The notes under the pieces were generated by a model that ran no database searches, was not told the DNA's origin, and saw nothing but the letters and a program-made list of their open reading frames with translations. The translations under genes and the position numbers were made by a program. A stretch of 63,502 bases of DNA, counting the filler, from Vermamoeba vermiformis (lineage: Eukaryota), in NCBI GenBank assembly GCA_045837725.1. It is 7 parts of 7 records of this genome, joined end to end, with 100 filler letters (N's around TTAATTAATTAA, not from the genome) between each part and the next. Parts side by side here need not be neighbours in the genome. Positions count along the whole stretch, not along the records: positions 27,547 to 58,368 come from JBEWZL010000097.1; 6 more parts are not named here. One strand, 5' to 3'. The first letter of the stretch is position 1; each line of letters begins with the position of its first letter. Below, in pieces: positions 1 through 46,030 of the stretch.

Positions 1-553
1 GTAGTGGATAAAAAAAGAACACTGTTGAACAGGAAGAAAATTTGCCGGCGCATTTTAACCGGGCTACAAGAAGTTTACTTTAGGCTGATTATTCATAATA
101 GGTTACTCACCCACTCACCCACTTGACCGAGTTCCGTATTTAGTGCTTGGATCTTCTAAATTGGATTGTCTTCCAACTTTGTGCGAAAATTGCCAGATTG
201 TGTACATTGTCATCTGAAAACAATCATGTTCCAACATTAATACAAATACGAGACGTGGATACTTGTGTATTGTAGGGCATGGCGCACAATTACAAAGATT
301 CCGGCATGAAGCATATGGATACCCGTATAGTGCGTTTTGAGGATTACAATCAGGTTCCGCAAGGGCCGACGAAAAAAATAGACGAATTTTGTTTTGAAGC
401 CCTCTACGACAATGGAATATCTAAGGAATTACACGCCGTAACGGATGAGACCCTAATAGCTTTAGGTAAGATTCCGTGATCTAAAAATAAACAAATAAGT
501 TAAACAATTATTTAATCTAATGTTTTCGTTCAATAGGAAAACCAGATAGTCTA

Positions 554-3500
554 ATGAACAACATATATATTTTTAGAATAATACAGGAATTGAGAGAAAA
601 AGAATTACCGGAGTTGACACGCCAAGGTTTAAAACCGAATGGTAAGATTACTAAGAAGAAATGGAATGGCTACACAATTACAAAGCGTACACTCACGATT
701 GGAGACGTATCGCTATGGGAATACATTTATAAAAAGAGCGACGACGACTGGATCATTTTACACCGCTACGCTCCAAAGATACAATACAACAAAAACGGTC
801 AACAAAAGCAGAAAGCTCCGCAAACGAACATTGCACTTAATGAACACAACAGCAACAAAAATACTCAAGACAATTGGCAAAACTCCGAAGAGCTCGATAG
901 CTTTGTTAACAATGATATTGAAGGCAATGACAATGAGAATAATCAGCTGGACAGCGAAACTCCTCACGTCATGGAAAATTCTCAAGACAATTGGCAAAAT
1001 TACTCCGAGCTCGATAGCTTTGTTAACAATAATATTGATGGCAACGACAGTGACAATGAGAACTATTTCTATCAAGATGGAGCTAATAGCAACCAAAATA
1101 ATCAGCATGAAGTCGGTCAATGCCTGCAAATCCTCACCGAAGCTTGGCAAAATCCGCGCATGCACAATGAGAATATCGAACCAGATGTCAACGAAATTAT
1201 GGAAGACGTCGATGGAATTCTACCAGACGCTCCCAGCACGTTGTACCTCAAACTGTTACGCGAAAGCATAGCAAAAAAGAAGTTCTTCAATAAGCCAATT
1301 AAAATATATGACGAATTATTGCAATTTAAGCTGGCCTCGGACGATCTGATGGAAGATGAAGACGATGACGCCTCAAATGGGGGTTTAGACCACGATTCAG
1401 ACGAGGTTGAAGAAGAAGAGATAATTTCCTTTTCTGAGTTGACGCAAGATGGCTTCCAGTTTATTATCGATAACAAATTGATCCATTTAACTTCCCCTGG
1501 AGGAACGGGCAAAACGATGACGATTTGGCAGTTGGCGAAGAGTGTCGACGAGTATTTTCGTCGAAAACTCGTTCCTGTTGCTATTAAAGGTCAGCAGGCA
1601 ATAATATCTTAGTTTGAAAACTAATGTGTGATTGCAGCCGAGCACTACTATCATCAGATTAAGCTAGAAGACCAGTTCAATTTTCAATATTTGTCGGTCG
1701 AAGCGCTCGTCAGAGGTAGCATGCATACTGCCGAGGTGAAGAACATCGAAGATCAACAGATATGGTGCCAGAATCTAGAAGCTACGATTCAGAACGGCAC
1801 GGGTATTATTCTGTTGATTGATGCCCTCGATGAAATGAAGTCACGTGATCGAGAAGAGTTCTTGAAACATATTGAATTTTTAACGGCCAATCTCCCTGGT
1901 TAGTTCATTTGCATCCAAAACAAACTTCAATCCTAATTCAAACATCTTTACAGGGTTGATTAAAGGAGAGGTCAATCTTGTGGCACTTGTTGTGTCATCT
2001 AGACCAGGCTTGACCTTGCCGACAGATTCCGAAGAACTGTCCTGGCTGCAATTAGAGCTGATCGAGCACGACGACTCAGAACACGTGTTACAGATCTTGT
2101 GCGCACCAGGGAGTGCAGTATATACGAAGGCTCTAGAGCTGTGCGAACATTACGAATTTCCAAAGTACTTGTTCTGGTACTCATTGTTGGTCATTGAAGC
2201 AGAGACAATGGACGCGAACTCGACACTGACAGCTTCTCAGTTCGATTTTCTCGGAGGATTGTTGTTACGCTCGATCCGGACGACAAAAGATAAGAAAACT
2301 AGTCTCGACGCTGATCAATCGGCAATGCTGAACGAAGATGCGACGTACTTGCTGCTCATAGCAGGGTTGATAGCATATATCGCCAAAGTTCGGCAAACAA
2401 CTAGGATCGCTGATTTAGAACAAGAGCTCTCGTTCTTGATGACTGACATGTCATTTCCAAAATCAATTATTGACAGTCGCGGCTCAGTTATCAAGAAGCT
2501 ACTGCCGGTATTGCAGTTTTGTCATTGTTGCACATCCTGCACGGAAGACAGCGAGGACAAGTTGATAGTATTCGATCATCTGATCGTTTTCGATTACTTA
2601 GTCGCGAGTTTCATCATCAAGACGATCCTGCAACAAACTCACCCGTCATTAAAAGAACAGATCACTGCGAACCCATCTTTGGCATTCGATTGGCCACATT
2701 ACGTCACAGATACAGCGCGTTACGACTCTGAGTGGCTTCAAGTCATGCACCTCATTGCCGATGCGCTGCCAGTCGGAGATTTCATCACAACGATCAAACA
2801 ATGCCGTCTCGATGAAGCAGAGGCCTGGCTGTCAAACATAGCCAATCATCCGCGGTGCTATGACATTGAAGACCCGACATTAGCGTACATCAAGTTGATA
2901 GTCTCGTGTCTATTTAATGCGTCGCGAAAGAGTGTTAGTACTGCCAAGACAAGTCATAAAAACAAAAAATCAAAAAAAGAGAGCTCGCATTCGGACAGTA
3001 GTGCGACACGATTAAGTTTTGAAGTATTAATCAAATTGTTTTCTCAACCGGTGATTGGTCAACTGATTATTGAAGATATTTGTCAGATAAAGTCGTTGTC
3101 ATTACTCTTCGACGAGTTAACGCAACAAAATCTCCACGGCAGATTTATTCAGATATTTATCGACAAATTTAACGCGCCTTCAAGCGAGCAACGTATGCCC
3201 GAGGAACTAGTGACGCTCGCCATCCGTTTTTTCAATATTGGCAATCCAGAGATTAATTCGACCATTCAAGATGGACTTTTCAATCGATTGTCGTCGCGTT
3301 GTGCCACCGAACCAGTCAGCAGCCCAATGACCAGAGCAATACAATTTTTTTTCAGAAAGATCCAAGCCTTTGGTTATTTGATAGACAAGCTTGCCAGCGA
3401 CGACGAACTCGAAGTTGCTTCGGCCATACCAATGTTGCTTGGTTTTAAAACTTATCGGACAATGTTCTTCATACAAATTGACGCACTTCTCATGGAAATT

Positions 3501-5158: not shown

Positions 5159-7109
5159 TCAAAGAGCTAGTAGTTGCTGCAAGAAAGGATGAGTTGATAG
5201 ACCAAACTGTTGCACCATCTCTTCATCATCAAGAACTAGATAGTGCTCCTCTGCAGTTTCAGCAGAGTGATCCATCAGGTAATGGAACCACTGCTGATGA
5301 GACTCTGTCCAACCCCTCAAATTGCCCTTGTTATAAGCAAGAGTATTTAAACTCTTTCTAAGGACTTGAATTGTGTATTGAGAGTTGGTTACTTGGTTGG
5401 TTAGAGCCTTAATAAGCTGGCAAATTTTGTTAGTTGTAAATGATTTTCCTGTGTCATAGTCAATCCAAAAATCATCAGATGGATGGTTTGAATCAACTAA
5501 ACAGGGTCTAACATGATCTATATAAAAGTTGATGTATTGATTTAAAGAACAAGGTACTGGGAATGGCTTGAAGATAGACCTGTTATTGTATGAAGCATTC
5601 TTGGTCCACTTAGGACAGAATTCCCAGTAGCCTTTGTTCTTTTTATAGTATCTCTTACCTTTACTTACTGCTTCATCTCTTTGTTTCCAAATCATAGTGT
5701 CATTCAGAACCATCTTAGTGAAGTAGCTAGTTCTTGGCATGCCAATTGAAAGACCAAGAGTCCACATCAAGCACAACTGATACTGCTCACATTGCTGAAG
5801 CTTTAAAGGCTCTATTCAAAGTTATTTGTTAGTTAACAAATTTGTTTTGATCAATAGTCTTTGATTACTGACTTGTCTTTGTGACCATAGTATTTTTTTT
5901 CTTGAAGTGAACCTTTGATTGAATAATCTCTTCCATTGTTGTCTTTGAGAACTCTGATACTGCCACAAACTTGTCTTCAGAGCATAGTTTGCCTTCAGCT
6001 TTCATCACTGACATTCTCATGGAGTGTTTCTTCAAGTCCCTGGCTGACTTTCTAGCTTTCTTCCTTTGATTAAGATAGAACTTCTTTACTGCTTTGATTT
6101 GTCTCAACCTAATGTAGTTATTTTCATTTAACTTAACAATTTTAAGTAGTTTAAGGATACAGCTGATGTTAGAGCAAACTGTTGAAGCCATCTTCTTTCC
6201 TTTTCTTGTTTTCTTTTTGCCTATAGTTAAGAAGAACTGCTTATTAATATCAATAGACTGAAAGAACTTTGCAGGTGTTGGGTAATGATTAGTTAATTTG
6301 ATGAATGACTTTGTTTTCAAGTCTTTCATCAAAAATATAATTATGGATACTAGTGTTGATGATAATAGTCTTGAGTTATTGTTATTTGACTCTGAGTCAA
6401 TCTCCTGAATGAGATCAGCCCAGTACTTAGCCTTGATCAATTTTGATTTGATCAGTTTCCAGTTGATTGGCTTAGACTTCTTTTTCTTCTTCCTTTTAAG
6501 TGGCTCTTCTTCAACTGCCTCTTCAACAGCTTGTTGGATGTGGAATTCTTCAATCTCTTCTTCAATCTGTTGCTGCATTGGCTTTGGAATTCTTCTCATG
6601 TTCAATGGGTCTGCTCTAATTACTTGCTCTGCTTCTATTTCTTCTTTAGACTCCTTCATTTCACTTCTTTTTCTCCACCTGTTGACTCTCTGAATCCATT
6701 TTCTTCCTTCTGTTGACTTCTTGAGCAGAGCATTCTCCATCCAGAAAACCTCTCTGAACCTAACTTCTACTTTGTAGAGCAACTTATTGCCCTCAAATTT
6801 GAATGAATATACATTAGTAATCTCTCCTCCTAACTCCTCCTCAGCAGTAGGCCTATGGTTATGAACCTTTGGTCTATTCCTGGGATTTGTAGCAGAGAAG
6901 AGTTCAATGATAGTATACCTATTAGCAGGAGAGTACCTTAAAATGCCAGAGCAGCAGTTGTTCTTCAAGTGGGGTATCACTGACTTGAACATGAGCTCTT
7001 TGTAGCAGAGGGGGCAGTCTACCTGCTTGCAACTAAGATTGAATGAATGCCAATGAGCCAATTGCCTGGTCATTTCATCTTTGTCAAAGGCTTTGAATAT
7101 ATCTTGCAT
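5159..7109 (-). CDS. Tyrosine recombinase with N-terminal C2HC zinc finger and chromo-like domain (Crypton-like DNA element protein), ~630 aa, 2 exons
   Basis: YR motifs: SIGMPRT (R), WTKN (K), IQVLRKS (H/QxxR), LMDHSAETAEEHY (H...Y). N-terminal CPLC..H...C. Chromo-like ITNVYSFKFEGNKLLYKVEV..FWM. In-frame intron 5872-5812 (GTCAGT...CTAAC...AATAG). Confidence 0.75.
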
Positions 7110-7277
7110 AGTGTTATTGTTGAAAAATTAAAAAGGGTTCCCTTGTGGTGCTGTGTTTTTAAAAAAACAACAAAATAAATTGGACAAAAAAAATTGATTT
7201 GTGATTTGTAACAGCTAGTTTTTCATGAAAAATACATTATGTCTGCAACCTCAGCTTTGTTAACTGAACCTGCACGT

Positions 7278-13175: not shown

Positions 13176-13275
13176 NNNNNNNNNNNNNNNNNNNNNNNNN
13201 NNNNNNNNNNNNNNNNNNNTTAATTAATTAANNNNNNNNNNNNNNNNNNNNNNNNNNNNNNNNNNNNNNNNNNNN
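13176..13275. other. Artificial contig linker
   Basis: N run with TTAATTAATTAA. Confidence 0.98.
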
Positions 13276-15320: not shown

Positions 15321-15364
15321 CTCTTCACTCAATTATTGCACTGATGTATTAACCTTTGAGGCAA

Positions 15365-16165
15365 TGCCTTGAAGGTAACAACCTACCTAACTTCGGACAT
15401 CGTCGCCTTGAAGGTAACGACCTCCCTGACTTTGGACGTTGTCGCCTTGAGGGTAACGAGCTCCAACGTTGTCGCCTTGAAGGTAACGACCTCCCACGTT
15501 GTCGCCTTGAAGGTAACGACCGTCCTGACGTTGGACGTTGTCGCCTTGAGGGTAATGACCTTTCTAACTTCTGACATCGTTGCCTTGAAGGTAACAACCT
15601 CTGACGTTGGACGTTGTTGCCTTGAAGGTAACAACCTCCAACGTCGTCGCCTTGAAGGTAACGACCTACCTGACTTTGGACGTTGTCGCCTTGAGGGTAA
15701 CGACCTACCCAACTTTGGACGTTGTCGCCTTGAAGGTAATGACCTCTCATGTTGTCGCCTTGAAGGTAACGACCTCCCTGACTTTGGACGTCGTCGCCTT
15801 GAAGGTAACGACCTACCTGACTTTGGACGTTGTCGCCTTGAGGGTAACGACCTACCCAACTTTGGACGTTGTCGCCTTGAAGGTAACAACCTACCCAACT
15901 TTGGACGTTGTCGCCTTGAGGGTAACAACCTCTCACGTTGTCGCCTTGAAGGTAACGACCTCCCATGTTGTCGCCTTAAAGGTAACGACCTCCCATGTTG
16001 TCGCCTTGAAGGTAACGACCTCCCTGACTTTGGACGTCGTCGCCTTGAAGGTAACGACCTACCCAACTTTGGACGTTGTCGCCTTGAGGGTAACGACCTA
16101 CCCAACTTTGGATGTTGTCGCCTTGAAGGTAACGACCTCCCACGTTGTTGCCTTGAAGGTAACGC
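15365..16165. repeat. Tandem array of ~23 copies of a 22-nt palindromic core GTCGCCTTGAAGGTAACGACCT with mostly 8- or 17-nt linkers (30/39-bp units)
   Basis: Counted by eye. Linkers are recurrent (cccacgtt/ccaacgtt; acctgactttggacgtt/acccaactttggacgtt), not unique. Confidence 0.95.
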
Positions 16166-16261
16166 CTCTGGCGTTGTCCAGAGGATATTTCATGCATTGG
16201 CTGTTCGACTTAGTATTTTTTCCATAACCCAAACATCCGTCAACCCCAAGTATATATAAAA

Positions 16262-22738: not shown

Positions 22739-24324
22739 ATGGTTTCCATTAGCTTCGTGCTGGTCTTGTGCTCTTGCGTCGTCTTCTCCACTGCATCAAT
22801 CACTCCGATCTGGCTTTCTCCGTTGAACACCTCTGATACAAGTCAGTATTGTTCATTATAGCTTTAAAACCAACTAAAAATTTATTGTCAGGCGAATTTC
22901 AATCGGTCAAATACGAGTGGACAAACATCAGCACTGGTGCTGGCGGCAGAGCTGGAGCTTTTTCGGTTGAAACAGATTCAAAAGGAACAATATGGATTAC
23001 TGGTGGCTACAGTTATACCAGGCAGTATTCAAACGCTGTTTGGAACTACGACCCCAAGACTGATCTTTACCGTTGGGTTGCAGGCACTGTCAATGACTCC
23101 AGCGTCAATCACGTTGTAGTCACTGAATATGGTGTGCCCGATGCTAACGGATTTCCTGGTGACATGACGTTTCCCGCTTCAGCGATCGACCATTACGACA
23201 ACATCTGGATTTATGGAAGCGAAGCTGGCATTACAAACATGTTCTGGCGGTTCAACACGACGTCATTTGAGTTTACAAACTTCCGATATAACGATACGCA
23301 TCTCCCCGTGTACGGCGAAGTTGGCGTCCCTGCATCTGGCAACACTCCTGGAGGAATGGAAGGCGCTAGTCTCAGTGTTGACTCTCAAAACAATCTGTGG
23401 CTCTTAGGAGGATATCGCTCAGGAACTCTCAACAGCGTATGGCATTTCAACACGACTTCATTGATGTGGACTTTTGTTGGAGGCGACGCTATTAACCCCG
23501 TCAAAATCGACTTTGCGAACAAGACTTGGAATGGCCGTTGGTTGCCTGCCTCTACAATTGATGAAGAAGATCGTATTTGGATTTTCGGTGGATATGGTGA
23601 CGGTGCAGCTGGCGAGACAGACGTAGATTGGGGTGACATGTGGTCATTTGACACGAAGACTTTGGAGTGGCGTGTCGAATGGGGAAATGAATCTTCACTC
23701 GTGATCAACAGTTCTTTAGCAGTGCCCGACGACTTCAACATTAACAACTACCCGCGTTCTAGAACAGGTGGTTTGATGGTTGACAGACGAGACGGCACAT
23801 TGCTCCTCGGTGGTGGAAGTTTTTACGTTACTGACCAAGGCTTAAATGATTTTTGGCTATTCAACAAGACGAGCAAGATGTGGAAGCTCGTGTCCGGCAG
23901 TATTGGTTCTGATATAGTCCCGAATAATTTCACAAACTACCGTGCCAAAGGAAGTGTACTTGGATCTCGGTACTACCCTGGCAGATCTGGTGGCGTTCAT
24001 AATCGTGGTAATCTCATTCTATGCGGTGGAGATGATGGCAGTATGGCGTTCAGTGACATCTGGATCTTGCCTCAAGACCAGTGCGTGGGTGCCAATAACG
24101 ATTGTGACGTCAATGCTGACTGCATCGTGTCCACTACTGATTACTTCTCGCACACTTGTACCTGCAAAGAAGGATATACTGGCGACGGAAAAACTTGCAC
24201 CTTGGCTTCTCCTCCATCCTCCAATTCGCCTTCTTCTACGCCCTCTTCATCCAAGACATCGGCAGCAGCTATCAAACTTGCCGTGCCTATCTTTGCTATA
24301 TTTTATACCGTATTATTTGCCTAA
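22739..24324 (+). CDS. Secreted/surface kelch-repeat beta-propeller + EGF domain + Ser/Pro stalk + hydrophobic (GPI/TM) tail
   Basis: Signal peptide MVSISFVLVLCSCVVFS; intron 22842-22891; kelch motifs (IWITGG, LWLLGG, IWIFGG); EGF CDVNADC...CTCKEGYTGDGKTC. Confidence 0.85.
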
Positions 24325-24327
24325 ATA

Positions 24328-24427
24328 NNNNNNNNNNNNNNNNNNNNNNNNNNNNNNNNNNNNNNNNNNNNTTAATTAATTAANNNNNNNNNNNNNNNNN
24401 NNNNNNNNNNNNNNNNNNNNNNNNNNN
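24328..24427. other. Artificial contig linker
   Basis: N run with TTAATTAATTAA. Confidence 0.98.
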
Positions 24428-29276: not shown

Positions 29277-31023
29277 TTATTTCAGCTGATATACATGCGT
29301 AAACTTGGCTATAACTTCGTTAGAAACATTTTTCAAGAAGACAAGGCTGGTCAGATGCGTGAGCGGAAGCAAACTTAATGCCTGCTCGTCGGTTGTATCA
29401 CAATTAACAGTAAGTTGTTGCAGGTTGGTAAGTTGAGTAGCTATATTCCAAAAGCCTATACTTCGCTGCGGAACGAACAAGTACTTCAGATCTGTCATTT
29501 TTGAAACGCAACTAACGTCGATATTGTTGCTGACGAAGTGCAAGTACGTCAGTTTGGATAGTGAATGTAACCCCTGAACGCCTTTATCCGGATTAGGAGT
29601 GGCAAAATGCAAAAATTCCAAGTTCGTCAGATCCGCTACGTTCACGTCAAATTTTGAATCGCCCCATCGATAGATTGAAAGTTCTTTTAGCGTTGTTAGC
29701 TTTGACAAGAACATTTGATATTGTGCATTGGCCCCAACATCTTCGACTGACTTTAATGATGTCAAGTTGGTTAGCTGGGTCAAAAAATACATGTACCAGC
29801 CGTTATTAATAGCGACACTTTCAAGCGTCATCAAACGGGAAATTTCCTTTGAAAATTCGACGGTTTTGGCATTTAAGACCAATTCAGTGAGTTTCGATGA
29901 AGTCACGTATGGCGCGAACAAACTGTCGTGAAGTTCAAGTCGTCTGCTGAGCGATAAGTTCTCTAGGTCTGTCAATGCTGTCAAAAATTTCATCGGTGAA
30001 ATTTCTCGTCCGACAGTAAAATCGATGGCTAGTGATTTCAATTTGGTTAATACTGTCAATTCGTGTGATCGTGGGTTGTCATCGGCTAACATTCTAATCT
30101 TCAAAAATGTCAAATTTGTGTTGAGATCCAATCTCTCGGGCGAAGGTTGCGGTATTATTCCGTTGCGCGTTGCTAGCTGGACATTCAAACTTTCCAAATT
30201 TGGCAATAAATGGTGCGGAAATGATTGCCCTTGATTATTTTTCCACTCCAAGTGTTTGAGACCTGTCATACGTTCCACGACTTCTTGTTTGACGTCGATC
30301 ATTCCTTCAAAGAAAGCCACCAATGACGTAAGTTTCTCGGGAAATTTCAATTTTTCTAAAATTGCTGCATTTTGTAACGGTTTGGAGATCGAGACGGTGA
30401 GACTTTGCAAGTTGGTCAGATGTGTCAAAAAATTCACGGTCAGTTCGTCGTAAGCGTCCACTTGTGTGATGTTTGGCAAGTACGGTAACAATTGAGAATA
30501 ATAGGACCGATGGGCTGGTTGTATATGGATTTGTTGTAAGTTGGTCAAAGTTGTCAAGCGGATCCAGTTTTCGACAGGGAACTGCGTGTAGTTTCGATCC
30601 GGGATAATAAACCGAGTTAAGTTCGTCAAACGAGATATTTCCAATAGTTCTGTGAATTGATCCGACGGTCCATTCTCTTTGAACCTTGTTTTGGCAAAAG
30701 TAAGACCGATCGGATGTGTCAACTTCGACATTTGCTCTATGACCTGTAATACTTGTTCTCTTGTGGCATAATTTATAACGAAATTATTTAGTACCGCAAT
30801 ATCTCTCCATTGAGCGCAAACCAAGCGAGAATTCAGAATCGATTTTAAATCCGAAAAATCTAAAATCCGTTGGATGATCTCTGGTGGCCATAAATCCTGT
30901 CAGTTTAATTTAATTAAAATTAAGCAAATATTATGCGCGTGATAACTATTTAATTAGACTCTATTCTAAGTTTGACATCAAGGATCGAGACAGCAATCAA
31001 CATTGCAAGCTCCTACTTACCAT
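29277..31023 (-). CDS. F-box + leucine-rich repeat protein
   Basis: Exon 1 is ATG only (31023-31021), intron 31020-30897, then DLWPPEIIQRILDFSDLKSILNSRLVCAQWR (F-box) and many LTNLxxL repeats. Confidence 0.85.
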
Positions 31024-38839: not shown

Positions 38840-40670
38840 TACTAATAATAGAATTCAAATTAAACTGCCTCAACTTACCTCCTAGTTCATCCAAATACGC
38901 CAGTATGTTTACATGCCCTTTGCTCTTGGCTTTATGATACAGTTCAGGACTTGGTGTCACGTGCCCACAGTGCACCATGTAACGCAACAGATCGACGTCA
39001 TCGCCCAGTTGATTGATGGCATCAGGTGCCCACGGATCTTTTTATTGAAGAAAGTTAATGAGCTGTGAAAAATGTCGAATGACACGTGTCACTTTTTGAC
39101 ACTTTGACACTTTTGACTTACATTTGTGTTCGTGTGCGTATTTATAGCAAAGGGCATTGCCATGATCGCAACCAATCGAGAATTTGATGCCTGTAGTTGA
39201 AAATTCAATCGCAGTTAGTAGGAAACGAAAATAACCGCTTTTCTGACTCCAAACGTACCTTGCTTGAGCAACCAAGCCATTGACGACACATTCCTCGATT
39301 GAATTGCAATAACGACATGCTTTTCGTCGAATTTAGCGCCGTGTTGTTTCATCCATTCAAGCACTTTGAGTGTTTCTACAGCCGCAAGTGTGAGAGGAAG
39401 TCTCAACATGGAACCCGTGATCTCGAACTTCTCGACATTGTACATGTACTCCAAAAAATCGACACCATAGCGATAGGTCAACCCCATTTCGACGTACTCA
39501 GCGTGAGTTTTTAATCTTGGTCCGAGTTTTTTTTCCATGACGTACTTCACGCAATCAAAATTTGCACTAATAGCGGCCTGTAATACATCTATTCGATCTC
39601 CGTCTTCATACTCTTTAGTATCAGTATCATAATGTTGCTCTTCAATGCACCACTTCAAAAATTCTAGATCTGCGGATTCGGCCGCTAAAGTGCCAAGAGC
39701 GTTGGGTCTGTTCACCTTGTTCACCGTTGATAAATACTCTAATATGTCCTTTTGAGCGTTCTCAGCTGCCCTTGAGAAGATTTCGGGCAATAAAACAGCG
39801 TCAGGTACGTTTTCCATGAGATATTTCAACACATCCAAAGATCCGACTGTTTCGACGGGGTACGAAATTTGCGCGCCATTCTCTATCAAGTATTTCAAGC
39901 AGTCTAAAGCGCCGTGTATTATTGCGTAGTATGCTGCTTCGCCACAAGGTGCACCGTTTTCGTAAGCGTACTTCAACAGCTCCAAGTCGTTCGCTTGCAC
40001 TGCATTCTGGCTCGCGTAAGTCTTCCATTCGAGTCCTCGCGCTTTCAGAAATTTCACCGCTTCAAGGCTCCGAGCAATGATGTTGTTCACGGGGCAGCCT
40101 TCTTCCACGGCATATTTCAAGCACTCGAAACGATTGCAATTTGAAGCCATGTGTGGTATATTATCGTCCCATGGATATCCGTTCTCGTGCAAGTACTTTA
40201 AGATGTGCACGTGCCCTGCAGTAGCGGCAACACAACACAACGTTATGCCGTGGTTCGTCTTCATGTTAATCTTGTTGCTGATGTTCTCGAGGCAGTACTT
40301 GAGCATTTCTAGGTTGCCAATGCGGGATGCTTCATTGGCCACTTGTAGGTTCAATCGACATCCGTTATTTCGCAGAAATTTCAAGGCCTCAAGTTGGTTG
40401 TTCACAGCAGCGATGATCGCGAGATCTGTCGTGAAAAAGAAGTTCAACGACTTCAAATACTCCAAGCATGATATACTGCCAAGCTTGATGAAGTAAGCAG
40501 CGCATTCATTCTGATCGAGAACGAAGTGTTTGGGAAACGGATGCAGATCCAAGTGCGAGTTGAACAAAGACTTGCATGAAGATCGGAGCATTAATGCATC
40601 GAAATAATTTGTGTGGCTTATGATAATCTTCATTATCTCATTTGGCACTCCTAACAAGCCCTGGCTATCC
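38840..40670 (-). CDS. F-box + ankyrin-like repeat protein (terminal exons uncertain)
   Basis: F-box LLGVPNEIMKIIISH...LRSSCKSL; repeats LKYLHENGYPWD, LKYAVEEGCP, LKYAYENGAP; donor GTACGT ~39257 and a further exon ~39037-38880. Confidence 0.8.
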
Positions 40671-41960: not shown

Positions 41961-44272
41961 TTATATATTATTATTATTATTATTGCTTGACTTATCTGGA
42001 TAAATCGTGTCCAAACGGGTGTGCTCGATTCCTCGGTCAATACTGCCCACAGCAACAACATGCCACTTTTGATTCATAATCACGAATCGACCGCACGCGT
42101 CAGTATAATCAGGATTGCGTGTCGTAAGATTCAGCGTAGTAACGGGTGCTAGTGGCTGTAGAATAACTTCGGCTTTTTCACCTACATCCGAAGTCAGATC
42201 AGTTGGAGAAACCAAATGCTTTCAAAATTTTTCAATAAAACTATATAAAATAGTACGAATATAATCAATTTTTAACTAAATAACAAATCACTCGCAGATT
42301 CTTCCTCCGGATCGGATCTGGATCTGGATCCAATTTTAATGACTAAATTTTTGCGCTACGTACCTTTCATAATACCAAAACATTTTCGCTCCTCTTTTAA
42401 TGTCTTAATATCGAGCTCATTGCCATTTTTGTCCCACACAGTCAAAATTTTTGCAACAGTTATGCTAGCGCGAATGCCGAGACTATGAATTGCACCATTA
42501 TAGCCCTATACTCTAGTTAGCATTACCTTATTTGGTTATTGAAGTTAAATTTAATTACCTCCGTTATTAGGCCGCTCCATTTGTACTCGGGCAAAATGTC
42601 GCCAACGTTCAAAAGTACAGCGTGAAAGAGTTTGTTGAATTGACCAGTGTAAAAATATTCTTTAGTTATCACAGTTGATGGATAACGAACGAAATGATAT
42701 TTCTGCAAATGTTAGTTGTCACATCTTGCCTCGTAAAATAAAAAAATTACTCGTAATGGCGGGCATTGTACACTCAAAGCAAGCGTTACGTAAGAACTAG
42801 TAAATATAGCATTAGTATTAACATAAGTACTTTTCAAAGTGATTGTAACACAACGTACTTTGATAAAGCCATTGAACGTGAATTGTGATTCGATTGGATC
42901 TCGATGACTTGGGCTGGGACAAAATTTTTCCTATCGTAATAACCGAAATAGCCAAATAAAGGTTCTATGACGGGCAGCTTATTGACTCCTGTTGGAAAGA
43001 CCTGAATGTTATCACCGACAGAAACGCATCCGTCTGTGTTGTATAAAACAAATGATTAATGGCAAGCAAAATACGACTTGTATCATACCAATTATATAAA
43101 CGCCAACGACGTGCAGTCCTTTTTTGCTCAAATTCGGAAAATGTTTCACTATCGATGCGTTGAATTTTGTAAAGAGTTTGTTGATGGACGGAGCTGCTGG
43201 TTCATTTGCGACATGGTTCAAAGCACTCCACAAGCCCATGCCAGTATTGTACCACGTCATATTAGTGTTTGCATCACTAGTCATTGGTGTTGACATGTCT
43301 TGAATACTCATTGGAATGAAGTGCATGCGATCCAAACGGTGAGCACCGATCACTTTGACCGCGACCTTTTTGATGCTGTCTACGCATTTTGTATACTCTA
43401 ATAAATCGATTAACGTTAGATGTAGTTAATAGCCGACATCTATAGTACTACCTTGCTCGCTATATTGTACTAGATCCATTTTGTTGATAACAAATATCCA
43501 CTCAACATCGCTAGTCAGCGCGTGGTACGTGACCAGATCTTGACGCAACTTTGCTTTGAATTGCTCTATATCACCACAAGTAACTACGTATATGATTGCT
43601 TGACACTAGCATTACAAAATTAGAACTGATCCAAGACAGTTGGTACCGGCACATCCGTGGATGGCGCGTTGACTTACTGCTCCGCAATTGGCATACATCA
43701 TCTTGACTTGATTTTTCCTCGTAGAACCGTGCCATATATTCGCTCGAATGTTTTGGAGCTGAATTCCGTTGATCTGATAAGTATTATCATTGACAAGTTT
43801 TAATGGCGGTGTTGTGGCTTCTTTTGCTATTGATAAATTTTTTATGCGCACAGAAAAGTCTAATTCATCTTTTAGTCGGCTGTAGAGCGTTGTGCTTCCT
43901 AAATTTAAAATTATTAATTAAAATTTCTTCGCCTAGGTACAAATTTCGCTAGCAAGGCTGCCATATTACGGTAAATCTTAATATAATATAATAATATTGG
44001 AATTAAAAATATTACCTGCCCCAGGTAAACCAGTAACAAGAATATTTAATGAATTAGGCGCTGCTAGCCCGTCCGATAGTGTGGCTTGAATCAAATTAGC
44101 TGTTGCTTTCGAGGACCTAAATTATTATTATTAATTCCGTTCATTAAGATTGGTCGAACAAGTAAGGCAGATGTGCCTACCTAGCGAGGCTTCGGATAAT
44201 TGTATTCAATGGCAAATAAGAGAAGATCTTTGAATTGATCTCTTTAGGTAATATGCTAAAATAAGAAGCCAT
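41961..44272 (-). CDS. F-box-like domain fused to a degenerate EF-1A/eRF3/Hbs1-family GTPase (domains I-III), multi-exon
   Basis: Exon 1 MASYFSILPKEINSKIFSYLPLNTIIRSL; NILVTGLPGAGSTTL; FVINKMDLVQYSEQ; FIPMS; NMTWY..LWSAL; domain III GEKAEVILQPLAP...GRFVIMNQKWHVVAVGSI. Confidence 0.75.
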
Positions 44273-44393
44273 GTTCGTTGTGGTTACTTGTTAACGGCAC
44301 AAATAAAATTCAGATGCGCAGTTTTATTGGGTTGGTGGACAAATGATCCGAGCCACCTTGCTTGCATGACAAAACTATGCTTATGACTATTAA

Positions 44394-45128
44394 TTAAATG
44401 TAAGTAATATCCCAGTGGTTGCTTTCACGAGCGTAAATGTTGCCAGCTGCGGATCTGTATTGTGCAGCACCATCAGAGCGACGACCAATGTTAGTAAAGG
44501 TACGGGTAATGTAGCTATCGATGCAGCTGTTCAAAGCAACGTCGACCTTGTAGCCATTCCAGTGAGACATAGCGTTAGGGCGGCCAGCATGACCAGTCTA
44601 TCGAACGAGAGCCGATTAATCACTGAATAAGCAATATAATAGTTTTTCTTTAGGTAATATTAAAAAGGAAATATTAGATAAGTGAAAAGTAACGATTGCA
44701 TGAGATTTACGATTTGGATTGACATTTGACCGTTTGATAAATCTCGTAGGAGGTTGCAAAAAGCCACCATAAGGATATTAAATCAATTAATACTAACCTC
44801 AGTTCCTCCAGTAATGGTGATCGAGCAGCCTGAAGCGTGACGGAGAGTAATAACGCCGGTGATAGTTTGAACACGGATGGTATCCAAAGAAGTGCAGCGA
44901 GCGTTGTTTCTGTCGCTGCAGCCTCCGCTCGATGATATGCCAATGCCTGTTGATTGATTAATATCAAAATTGAATCAATAATTCAATTTCAGAATCCAAA
45001 AAACGGATGGTGGCAAACTCACCAGCGGCACGAACGCGAGCTAGAGCTTCAGCATGAGACAGGCGTTGAGCAGAAGCAATGGAAAAGACGGCGAGCAACA
45101 CAATAGCATAACAGATAGCGTATTTCAT
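44394..45128 (-). CDS. Secreted bacterial-type putative zinc peptidase (M15/LAS-like fold), ~150 aa
   Basis: Signal peptide; exons 45128-45023, 44946-44798, 44597-44394; ITGGTETGH...SHWNGYKVD and HWD motifs. Confidence 0.75.
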
Positions 45129-46030
45129 TGTTGTTCGTCGACGAAGAGGTTAGTGCGATTTTTCTATGGTGCTGCGCAGTTCAAAAGTGAAGTAAAATGA
45201 CAAATACCAGAGCGTCCGGGTAATTAATGGACAATTAACGTCATTAATCATTATTGCACGCGTTGGAAAGCGATTCAATCATGGCAAAGTACAAAAAATC
45301 CCACGTTTGTGTTTTGGCGTATTATCTCATTCCGAAATGTAAATAAACAAATATCCACAATACGAAACTTATTTGTGCTATCTGGTATCTGGTGTTAATA
45401 GCGATAGAACTGGAAAATACTAAAATAAGGTAAGATCGGATAGAATCAAATTAATTTACAACCGCTTTTCCTATGATTATTGATAAAGAATTTTTCGTTT
45501 AAGTTTTGAATTAATTTTCCTATTTTTTGGCTAGGGTATACATATTTTTTCATAATTATTATATATTTAATGCAGATCAAGATTTTTATCAGCCGCCTTG
45601 GAGGAGAGACAAACTACTACGTACGAGTTTGCAAACGAAATATAATATTTGATTTGGAGATTGTCAGCTTGCAACGTTGCTGATCTCGCGTCATGTTTGT
45701 TGCGATTAATGCTGAAAAATTGAGGCCTGCAAGCACGCATTTTCCTTCTCACCTTGCGATCAACTTAGATTTTCAATATTGTTCCAGGTACTAGACAATC
45801 TATTATAATAGATCTTCAATTGGGAGCATCACAGACCAAAGTAAGTTTTGAGACACTAATCACTTTGAAGATTTTCTTAAATCGCCATAGCATATCTACG
45901 ATATTAGGTGATCTCACAATAAGAGAAACGGCAGATTCTGACGGGGTGGGAAATGGGGAAAAGGGGCCCGTGAGTTCAATCACCAAAATTTAAATAGCAC
46001 AAACACCTAGACCATGAATAAGCAGCGAAG

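Follow-up and report, generated by a model that had tools for sequence, protein, structure and literature searches.

A split gene of Vermamoeba vermiformis that pairs an F-box-like N-terminus with an EF-1A-like body lacking several canonical GTPase motifs

A ten-exon gene, its transcripts and its homologue

The window analysed here, a 63,502-nucleotide stretch from Vermamoeba vermiformis (assembly GCA_045837725.1), is eukaryotic DNA with a G+C content of ~40%, and its minus strand carries, at positions 41961–44272, a split gene whose predicted product places an F-box-like motif in front of a body resembling elongation factor EF-1A. A sequence-only reading had described this product as an F-box fused to a probably inactive EF-1A-family GTPase. 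The open reading frame (ORF) pieces found on this strand are short and switch frame from one to the next until they are joined at GT..AG boundaries; the joined gene consists of ten exons totalling 1605 nt, i.e. 534 codons and one terminal stop in a single open frame. The nine introns measure 48–182 nt; GT..AG ends are found in all nine, and all donors start with GTA. A tblastn comparison of the gene model with the window revealed no second copy, the sole other match being the Walker A motif of an ABC transporter (E 0.41).

Exon 1 (44181–44272) contains the start codon (44272–44270) and the F-box-like motif (LPKEI, 44251–44237), translates as MASYFSILPKEINSKIFSYLPLNTIIRSLA(R) and ends within an Arg codon split as AG|G. 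The ATG used is the first after an in-frame stop located 6 codons upstream. Since its frame stops right behind the donor, exon 1 cannot stand alone; the frame of exon 2, for its part, contains no Met codon, and the G-domain exons therefore have no alternative start. Exon 2 (44016–44116) encodes a linker, SSKATANLIQATLSDGLAAPNS, and then, as LNILVTGLPGAG, strand beta-1 with the opening half of the P-loop. The P-loop, GLPGAGST, straddles the exon 2/3 junction (44031–43891), and exon 3 (43678–43898) supplies its second half (STTLY), a diverged switch I and the sequence WHGST (43734–43720), which replaces the DxxG-His of the G3 motif. The core of the G domain, with the G4 motif NKMD (43485–43474), is encoded by exon 4 (43452–43605), whereas exon 5 (43089–43397) encodes the end of this domain, with FIPMS (43320–43306) and NMTWY (43263–43249), and the start of domain II. 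Domain II continues in exon 6 (42859–43033) and in exon 7 (42751–42796), which is only 46 nt long. Exon 8 (42559–42702) covers the domain II/III boundary, exon 9 (42364–42505) belongs to domain III, and exon 10 (41961–42181) contains the end of domain III (GRFVI, 42092–42078), a poly-Asn tail and the stop codon (41963–41961).

Contigs from the run X1, which are ~96% identical to the gene, skip introns 3, 4, 5, 6, 8 and 9 (six of the nine) exactly at the modelled boundaries. The junctions observed in this way are the 3' junction of exon 3 (43678/43605), those of exons 4, 5, 6 and 9 (both junctions in the case of exon 4), the 3' junction of exon 8 (42558/42504) and the junction into exon 10 (42362/42179, cut +2). 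Because the introns are skipped precisely, with GT..AG ends on the gene strand, we attribute these contigs to spliced transcripts, either from a close relative or from a recent copy. Intron 7 (42703–42750, 48 nt) stays in the X1 contig, where it shows 5 substitutions and 2 inserted bases; owing to the two extra bases, the retained intron is unreadable in frame. Divergence reaches ~10% in this intron versus ~3.7% in the exons. Note that an intron of the same length occupies the same place in the homologue described below, and that intron 7 may be inefficiently spliced or regulated.

The X1 contigs also provided a test of constraint, for which we used 39 of the 55 counted differences, 5 in intron 7 and 34 in exons. 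The exonic differences correspond to 31 changed codons, 15 synonymous and 16 non-synonymous, to be compared with 292 synonymous and 1058 non-synonymous sites in the covered exons (ratio of non-synonymous to synonymous change, dN/dS, 0.29; binomial p 8.7e-4). The gene is thus transcribed and selectively constrained. The raw RNA runs X5–X7 yielded 6, 3 and 7 reads, mostly partial and 90–95% alike, which probably come from a related gene and are uninformative on this one.

When exon 5 was compared by phmmer with 1.84 billion representative proteins, four relatives were retrieved (51–56% identity, E 1e-29 to 4e-13), all of them ORF fragments of genomic contigs reading through introns; one carries the source name 'translation elongation factor EF-1alpha'. 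A metagenome scan with an alignment of the exon 5 relatives produced a single matching locus, L012. The homologue encoded there has ten exons and an intact 512-codon frame, all nine of its introns match those of the window gene in position and phase, and 262 of 507 residues are identical (52%; blastp, 499 bits). Exon 1 matches the rest of the gene in conservation (15/31 residues identical), and the intron that follows it in L012 interrupts the same split Arg codon. Identity amounts to 67% in exon 2, including 13 consecutive identical residues, SLNILVTGLPGAG, to 73% in exon 4 and to 57% in exon 9, and L012 also has a 46-nt exon 7 followed by a 48-nt intron. Both genes keep LP.EI..KIF.YLP, GLPGAGSTTLY, HGST[RK]KNQ and NKMD. 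Since the seemingly degenerate motifs are shared with a homologue that is only 52% identical, they are fixed features of the family and not the outcome of recent decay. The architecture put forward in the sequence-only reading, exon 1 together with the body, therefore recurs in this metagenome locus.

The flanks of the two genes show no synteny by tblastx. In L012, the frame of exon 1 is open for 44 codons further upstream (2532–2663, plus strand) and contains more ATGs, and the ORF P0006 starts there; this extension is not conserved, because of the in-frame stop that precedes the ATG in the window. Word-indexed protein searches with exon 5 and exon 3 ('longer' mode) returned no relatives, and the same kind of search with the L012 N-terminal frame returned its own ORF P0006 only. 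Scans of metagenome contigs and viral contigs with exon 5 gave no relatives either, and P0001, when searched in the ESM Atlas, fell only into generic GTPase clusters, with scores (<=0.83) of a level often reached by shuffled proteins.

These results bear on the possibility that the locus is a pseudogene or an artefact of the gene model, exon 1 being an unrelated short ORF located beside a decaying EF-1A copy. Such an explanation would account for the lost catalytic motifs and for the lack of close relatives in the word-indexed searches; the lack of RNA cover over exons 1 and 2 and the ~120 nt that separate the end of the upstream gene from the ATG also speak for it. We nevertheless disfavour it strongly and regard it as very improbable: the frame of 534 codons is unbroken, the contigs of the relative lack six introns precisely, synonymous change is in excess, and the 52% identical homologue, located between other flanks, has an intact frame, the same introns, exon 1 and the same 'degenerate' motifs. 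These data (intact frame, X1 splicing, dN/dS of ~0.3, L012 homologue) speak against the untranscribed pseudogene that the sequence-only reading had named as a possible refutation of its own proposal.

The EF-1A-like body and its GTPase centre

The homology of the body was examined at several levels. Pfam scans covered exon-sized or intron-containing pieces. In the exon-wise scan (nine of the ten exons, the 46-nt exon 7 being too short), only exon 4 matched GTP_EFTU (PF00009; E 0.0087, 16.1 bits), and this family ranked below TRAPPC10, the best match of the exon, which we judged spurious. Longer pieces gave somewhat higher GTP_EFTU scores: 21.2 bits for P0001, 20.6 bits for P0002 and 23.1 bits for L012:3300–3800.

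For local profile tests, the two proteins (that of the window gene and its L012 homologue) were spliced in silico and compared with references comprising E. coli CysN and EF-Tu along with 84 complete ORFs obtained by a pattern scan of genome contigs, among which are five archaeal EF-1alpha (5/5 above the TIGR00483 cut-off) and two CysN-kinase fusions. The set being devoid of eukaryotic sequences, the comparison bears on the EF-1A/CysN branch and not on the choice among eEF1A, eRF3 and Hbs1. By phmmer, residues 173–310 aligned with residues 162–286 of E. coli CysN, across the exon 4/5/6 junctions, and the matches among the local references were of the EF-1alpha or CysN type only. In hmmsearch, a profile of 8 EF-1alpha/CysN sequences gave the two spliced proteins 46.6 bits (E 1e-11) and 63.7 bits (E 7e-17), to be compared with 2 bits for a profile of 30 EF-Tu sequences.

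Alignment of the two-member family with EF-1alpha/CysN by hhalign reached a probability of 98.7% (E 2.3e-16) and was colinear, query residues 51–511 being placed on positions 4–417 of the 421-position template with 21% identity; ten column shuffles used as controls scored <=6.1. The probability was 97.0% with archaeal EF-1alpha alone versus 2% with EF-Tu. When the protein was split into parts, the G domain gave 97.9%, domain II 44.9% (residues 291–400 on template positions 247–291, E 2.2e-4) and domains II and III together 72.6%. In a 25-row tree without eukaryotic rows, the family stands beside archaeal EF-1alpha and outside a group made up of CysN, SelB, aIF2gamma and EF-Tu (94/90), a weak placement given that the family branch exceeds 3.6 changes per column. 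As judged from these comparisons, the body is a translational-GTPase homologue of the EF-1A/CysN branch in which the G domain and domains II and III follow one another colinearly.

The only references matching by phmmer, hmmsearch and hhalign are archaeal EF-1alpha and bacterial CysN, and they share NKMD and the FIPxS / M.WY..G..L..L stretch with the window protein. They differ from it in that the latter has lost G1–G3, sits on a very long branch and also carries an F-box-like exon and a poly-Asn tail.

The nucleotide-binding centre departs from the canonical one in most of its motifs. G1 reads GLPGAGST (residues 60–67), which hhalign pairs with GHVDHGKS; Ser66 occupies the position of the Walker A Lys, and the motif is identical in L012. 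Likewise, W120-H-G-S-T124 is paired with D-a-P-G-H, so that neither the Asp and Gly of G3 nor the catalytic His is retained; the L012 counterpart is V-H-G-S-T. DxxG is absent from the G domain, the sole D..G matches in the protein being located at residues 439 and 489, G2 is unrecognisable, switch I aligns at near-zero confidence, and the GKGSF loop is absent from both homologues. Other motifs are kept, namely NKMD (residues 179–182), FIPMS (216–220) and NMTWY (235–239, within NMTWY..G..LW.ALN), and NKMD is also kept in L012, P0001 and P0002. The sequence-only reading had listed precisely these traits (a P-loop GLPGAGSTT with Ser in place of Lys, no G3 DxxG, no GKGSFKY loop, conserved NKMD, FIPxS and NMxWY), and each was recovered. 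Since the GKGSFKY switch I loop and canonical G1 and G3 motifs are missing, the protein is not the organism's elongation factor.

P-loop NTPases that have lost the Walker A Lys normally no longer bind phosphate. The lost motifs predict that the body does not hydrolyse GTP, and they make tight nucleotide binding probably unlikely. One may alternatively envisage an atypical guanine-nucleotide switch that still binds GTP or GDP via its non-canonical P-loop and whose nucleotide state gates a binding activity. Indeed, NKMD, the P-loop glycines and the Thr that follows the lost Lys are shared by homologues that are only 52% identical overall, and Ski7, which has non-canonical catalytic residues and a Ser at the catalytic-His position, still binds GTP according to the excerpted text of PMC4509514. 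However, Ski7 retains a working P-loop, as described in the same excerpts, while the window protein does not. Three elements are missing from it together: Ser66 stands in for the Walker A Lys, the residue aligned with the G3 Asp is Trp120, and G2 is unrecognisable. We therefore deem a nucleotide-gated switch unlikely.

The organisation of the window protein otherwise recalls that of Ski7 and Hbs1, where an EF-1A-type three-domain body stands behind an N-terminal region that recruits another machine. The N-terminal module differs, being F-box-like in the window protein and a Ski-complex/exosome-binding region in Ski7. The body also resembles pseudoGTPases, in which a G-domain fold devoid of catalytic or nucleotide-binding motifs serves as a protein–protein interaction module (PMC12490416); among the pseudo-forms encountered, none was a translational EF1-family one fused to a ligase adaptor motif.

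The N-terminal motif and a putative SCF role

In Pfam scans, the top family of exon 1 is F-box-like (PF12937; E 5.3e-4, 20.2 bits, profile positions 2–23 of 47). The F-box family proper (PF00646) gave 15.2 bits for a cut-off of 20.5, and the only competitor was PRANC, a family related to F-box (E 0.028). In L012, the first intron is in frame, which allowed exons 1 and 2 to be scanned as one frame: PF12937 was again the top family (E 2.8e-5, 24.2 bits), and PF00646 gave 18.3 bits. The residues that are invariant between the two homologues, L8, P9, E11, I12, K15, I16, F17, Y19, L20 and P21, align to profile positions 1–23, and the signature LPxE[IL]xxxI[FL]xxL is kept in both. An alignment of two other F-box-looking N-termini of the window was too poor to serve as an F-box profile. 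From these profile matches, the N-terminus appears F-box-like, in the sense that the signature is present and conserved, with scores short of those that define membership in the F-box family. The F-box-like start claimed in the sequence-only reading thus stands as far as the signature is concerned, but it covers half a profile and scores below the Pfam cut-offs.

F-box proteins (FBXL, FBXW, FBXO) likewise combine an N-terminal LPxEIxxxIFxxL with a separate C-terminal domain, and in many of them the motif lies at the extreme N-terminus. The window protein is unlike them in two respects: its C-terminal module has a predicted translational-GTPase fold instead of LRR, WD40 or kelch repeats, and the second half of its F-box is unrecognisable. 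F-box proteins select what the SCF (Skp1-Cullin-F-box) ubiquitin ligase destroys.

We propose, with about even confidence for and against, that the window gene encodes a substrate receptor of the SCF type, with a dead EF-1A-like factor as its binding module. The F-box-like motif (residues 5–30) would dock on Skp1 of the SCF ligase, and the EF-1A-like body (residues ~51–511), devoid of a working nucleotide centre, would act as the recognition module. The latter could hold a partner whose usual counterpart is a factor of the EF-1A family, or else a surface on which such factors dock. Cells normally rely on EF1-family factors to reach the A site of the ribosome and its tRNA-shaped partners. Candidate ligands would accordingly include the ribosomal A site and GTPase centre, eRF1/Pelota-type partners, aminoacyl-tRNA and the exchange factor; binding of Dom34 may indeed be ancestral to the EF1 family, according to the excerpted text of PMC4342817. 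The gene and its architecture are well supported by these sequence data, whereas we infer the SCF role, together with Skp1 binding, the loss of GTP binding and the nature of the ligand.

Several results weigh against this proposal. At the N-terminus, both homologues score below the Pfam gathering scores (24.3 for PF12937, 20.5 for PF00646), the F-box profile is aligned over only 22–23 of its 47 positions in either of them, and the second half of the F-box (helix 3 and its conserved Trp) was recognised in neither, even in the one-frame scan of L012. The 82-residue N-terminal frame of L012, in-frame intron included, gave an uninformative AlphaFold2 model (mean pLDDT, the per-residue confidence score, 45.8). 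Transcript data leave a gap at the very place where the motif meets the body: positions 43922–44325 (exons 1 and 2, introns 1 and 2) lack RNA cover in X1 and X5–X7, and in these runs no read or contig spans the exon 1–2 and 2–3 joins. The splicing that the sequence-only reading assumed is thus seen for six introns in X1, but not for the first two. As for the body, GTP_EFTU scores only 16–23 bits on all pieces, below its gathering score of 26.5; F-box-like and GTP_EFTU, the kinds of family expected from the sequence-only reading, were both matched, and both remained under threshold. Phmmer searches of PDB sequences with exons 3, 4, 5 and 10 retrieved an EF-1A-family chain in 0 of 4 cases, a family profile of exons 4 and 5 retrieved MTG1 only (E 0.094) from the same sequences, and the strongest homology scores rest on our own small reference set. 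Three EF-1A/eRF3/Hbs1 domains had been claimed; the colinear alignment agrees with this count, but domain III, when aligned alone, reached an hhalign probability of only 2.5%, which is not significant, though it was correctly placed. Finally, the conserved NKMD could mean that a guanine nucleotide is still bound.

Part of this evidence would suit a lineage-specific EF1-family paralogue, comparable to Hbs1, Ski7 or GTPBP, that functions in translation or mRNA surveillance without any link to SCF, the LPxEI sequence being a short helix with another partner. The half-matched F-box profile and the two scores below cut-off fit this view, N-terminal extensions recruiting other complexes are common among EF1-family members, and the eukaryotic EF1 family is, according to the excerpted text of PMC4342817, the main source of new cytoplasmic translational-GTPase functions. 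On the other hand, the exon 1 residues conserved between the homologues are signature positions of F-box profiles, F-box-like is the best Pfam family of both N-termini, with the related PRANC as sole competitor, and the motif occupies the extreme N-terminal position. We consider such a non-SCF paralogue possible, though not probable.

A more specific scenario for the SCF-type receptor concerns its cargo. If the body still docked where EF1-family factors do, on an eRF1/Pelota-like partner or at the A-site/GTPase centre of the ribosome, the F-box would bring SCF there, which would amount to a cullin-based quality control of ribosomes or translation factors, relying on a translation-factor mimic and so far limited to a protist-like lineage; we view this scenario as doubtful. 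The sequence-only reading had raised the idea of a ribosome quality-control adaptor, next to that of an integrated decoy, in which an EF-1A look-alike baits eEF1A-targeting effectors of pathogens and the F-box sends them to the proteasome. The architecture is indeed that of a bait joined to a ligase adaptor, and bacterial Ank effectors bearing an F-box have been reported to interact with SCF1 and EF1alpha (excerpted text of PMC4148323), which makes the eEF1A–SCF interface a known battleground. However, a decoy should resemble its target, and it sits badly with a body that resembles eEF1A so little that single exons match no EF-1A-family chain of the PDB; the GKGSFKY switch I loop is absent; and a dN/dS of ~0.3, a gene-wide average drawn from an incomplete list of differences, gives no sign of an arms race. 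We hold the decoy to be quite improbable, and both ideas to be speculation. Overall, all the sequence statements of the sequence-only reading were found, and its functional interpretation is partly supported.

The proposed receptor combines two known kinds of protein, being at once an F-box receptor whose cargo module is new and an EF1-family pseudo-GTPase, and the combination appears undescribed. A full-text literature search, judged by titles and the beginnings of abstracts, brought up no description of an F-box fused to an EF-1A/EF-Tu-type domain; one paper naming both F-box and GTP_EFTU lists these domains separately, and the 2015 survey of translational GTPases (PMC4342817) never uses the term 'F-box'. 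If the proposal is correct, this conserved fusion raises the question of what use a ubiquitin ligase makes of a translation-factor mimic. The pseudoGTPases would moreover gain a member from among the translational GTPases, and the EF1 family a new subfamily as well as a new domain architecture. Even if the motif does not bind Skp1, the protein would represent a new, very diverged and catalytically stripped EF1-family paralogue.

Other features of the window

An F-box gene lies 11 kb from the EF-1A-like gene. It is an intronless-looking ORF of 540 amino acids (29277–30899, minus strand) with a canonical F-box (PF00646, 27.2 bits) and LRR_14 (45.4 bits), and because it passes the Pfam F-box cut-off, F-box genes are present in this genome. 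Between the two, an ORF of 484 amino acids (39215–40669, minus strand) encodes ankyrin repeats (Ank_2, E 3e-21). By eye, its N-terminus, …LGVPNEIMKIII…, resembles an F-box, but it gave no F-box match at E<=0.01. Counting these two, there would be three F-box-like genes within 15 kb. Immediately upstream of the EF-1A-like gene, on the same strand, a neighbour (44394–45149) with a signal-peptide-like start, MKYAICYAIVLLAVFSIASAQ, gave no Pfam match on two of its pieces and ends ~120 nt ahead of the start codon.

Elsewhere in the window, long ORFs occur in several frames, on both strands, at 15349–16259, over a tandem repeat (…GRSLPSRRQRPK… / …LEGNDLP…) that has the appearance of a minisatellite-like repeat and not of a gene. 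N runs at ~13190–13231 and 24340–24379 are assembly gaps. At 521–1612 (plus strand) and 5159–7127 (minus strand) there are ORFs that encode a P-loop, …TSPGGTGKTM…, and Asn/Asp-rich stretches of low complexity; they lie next to large ORFs without assigned family and could be mobile-element genes. Finally, the ORF at 22837–24324 (plus strand; 495 amino acids) matches Kelch_KLHDC2 (61 bits) and EGF_3 (32.6 bits) and has a hydrophobic C-terminal stretch, so that its product looks like a surface protein.

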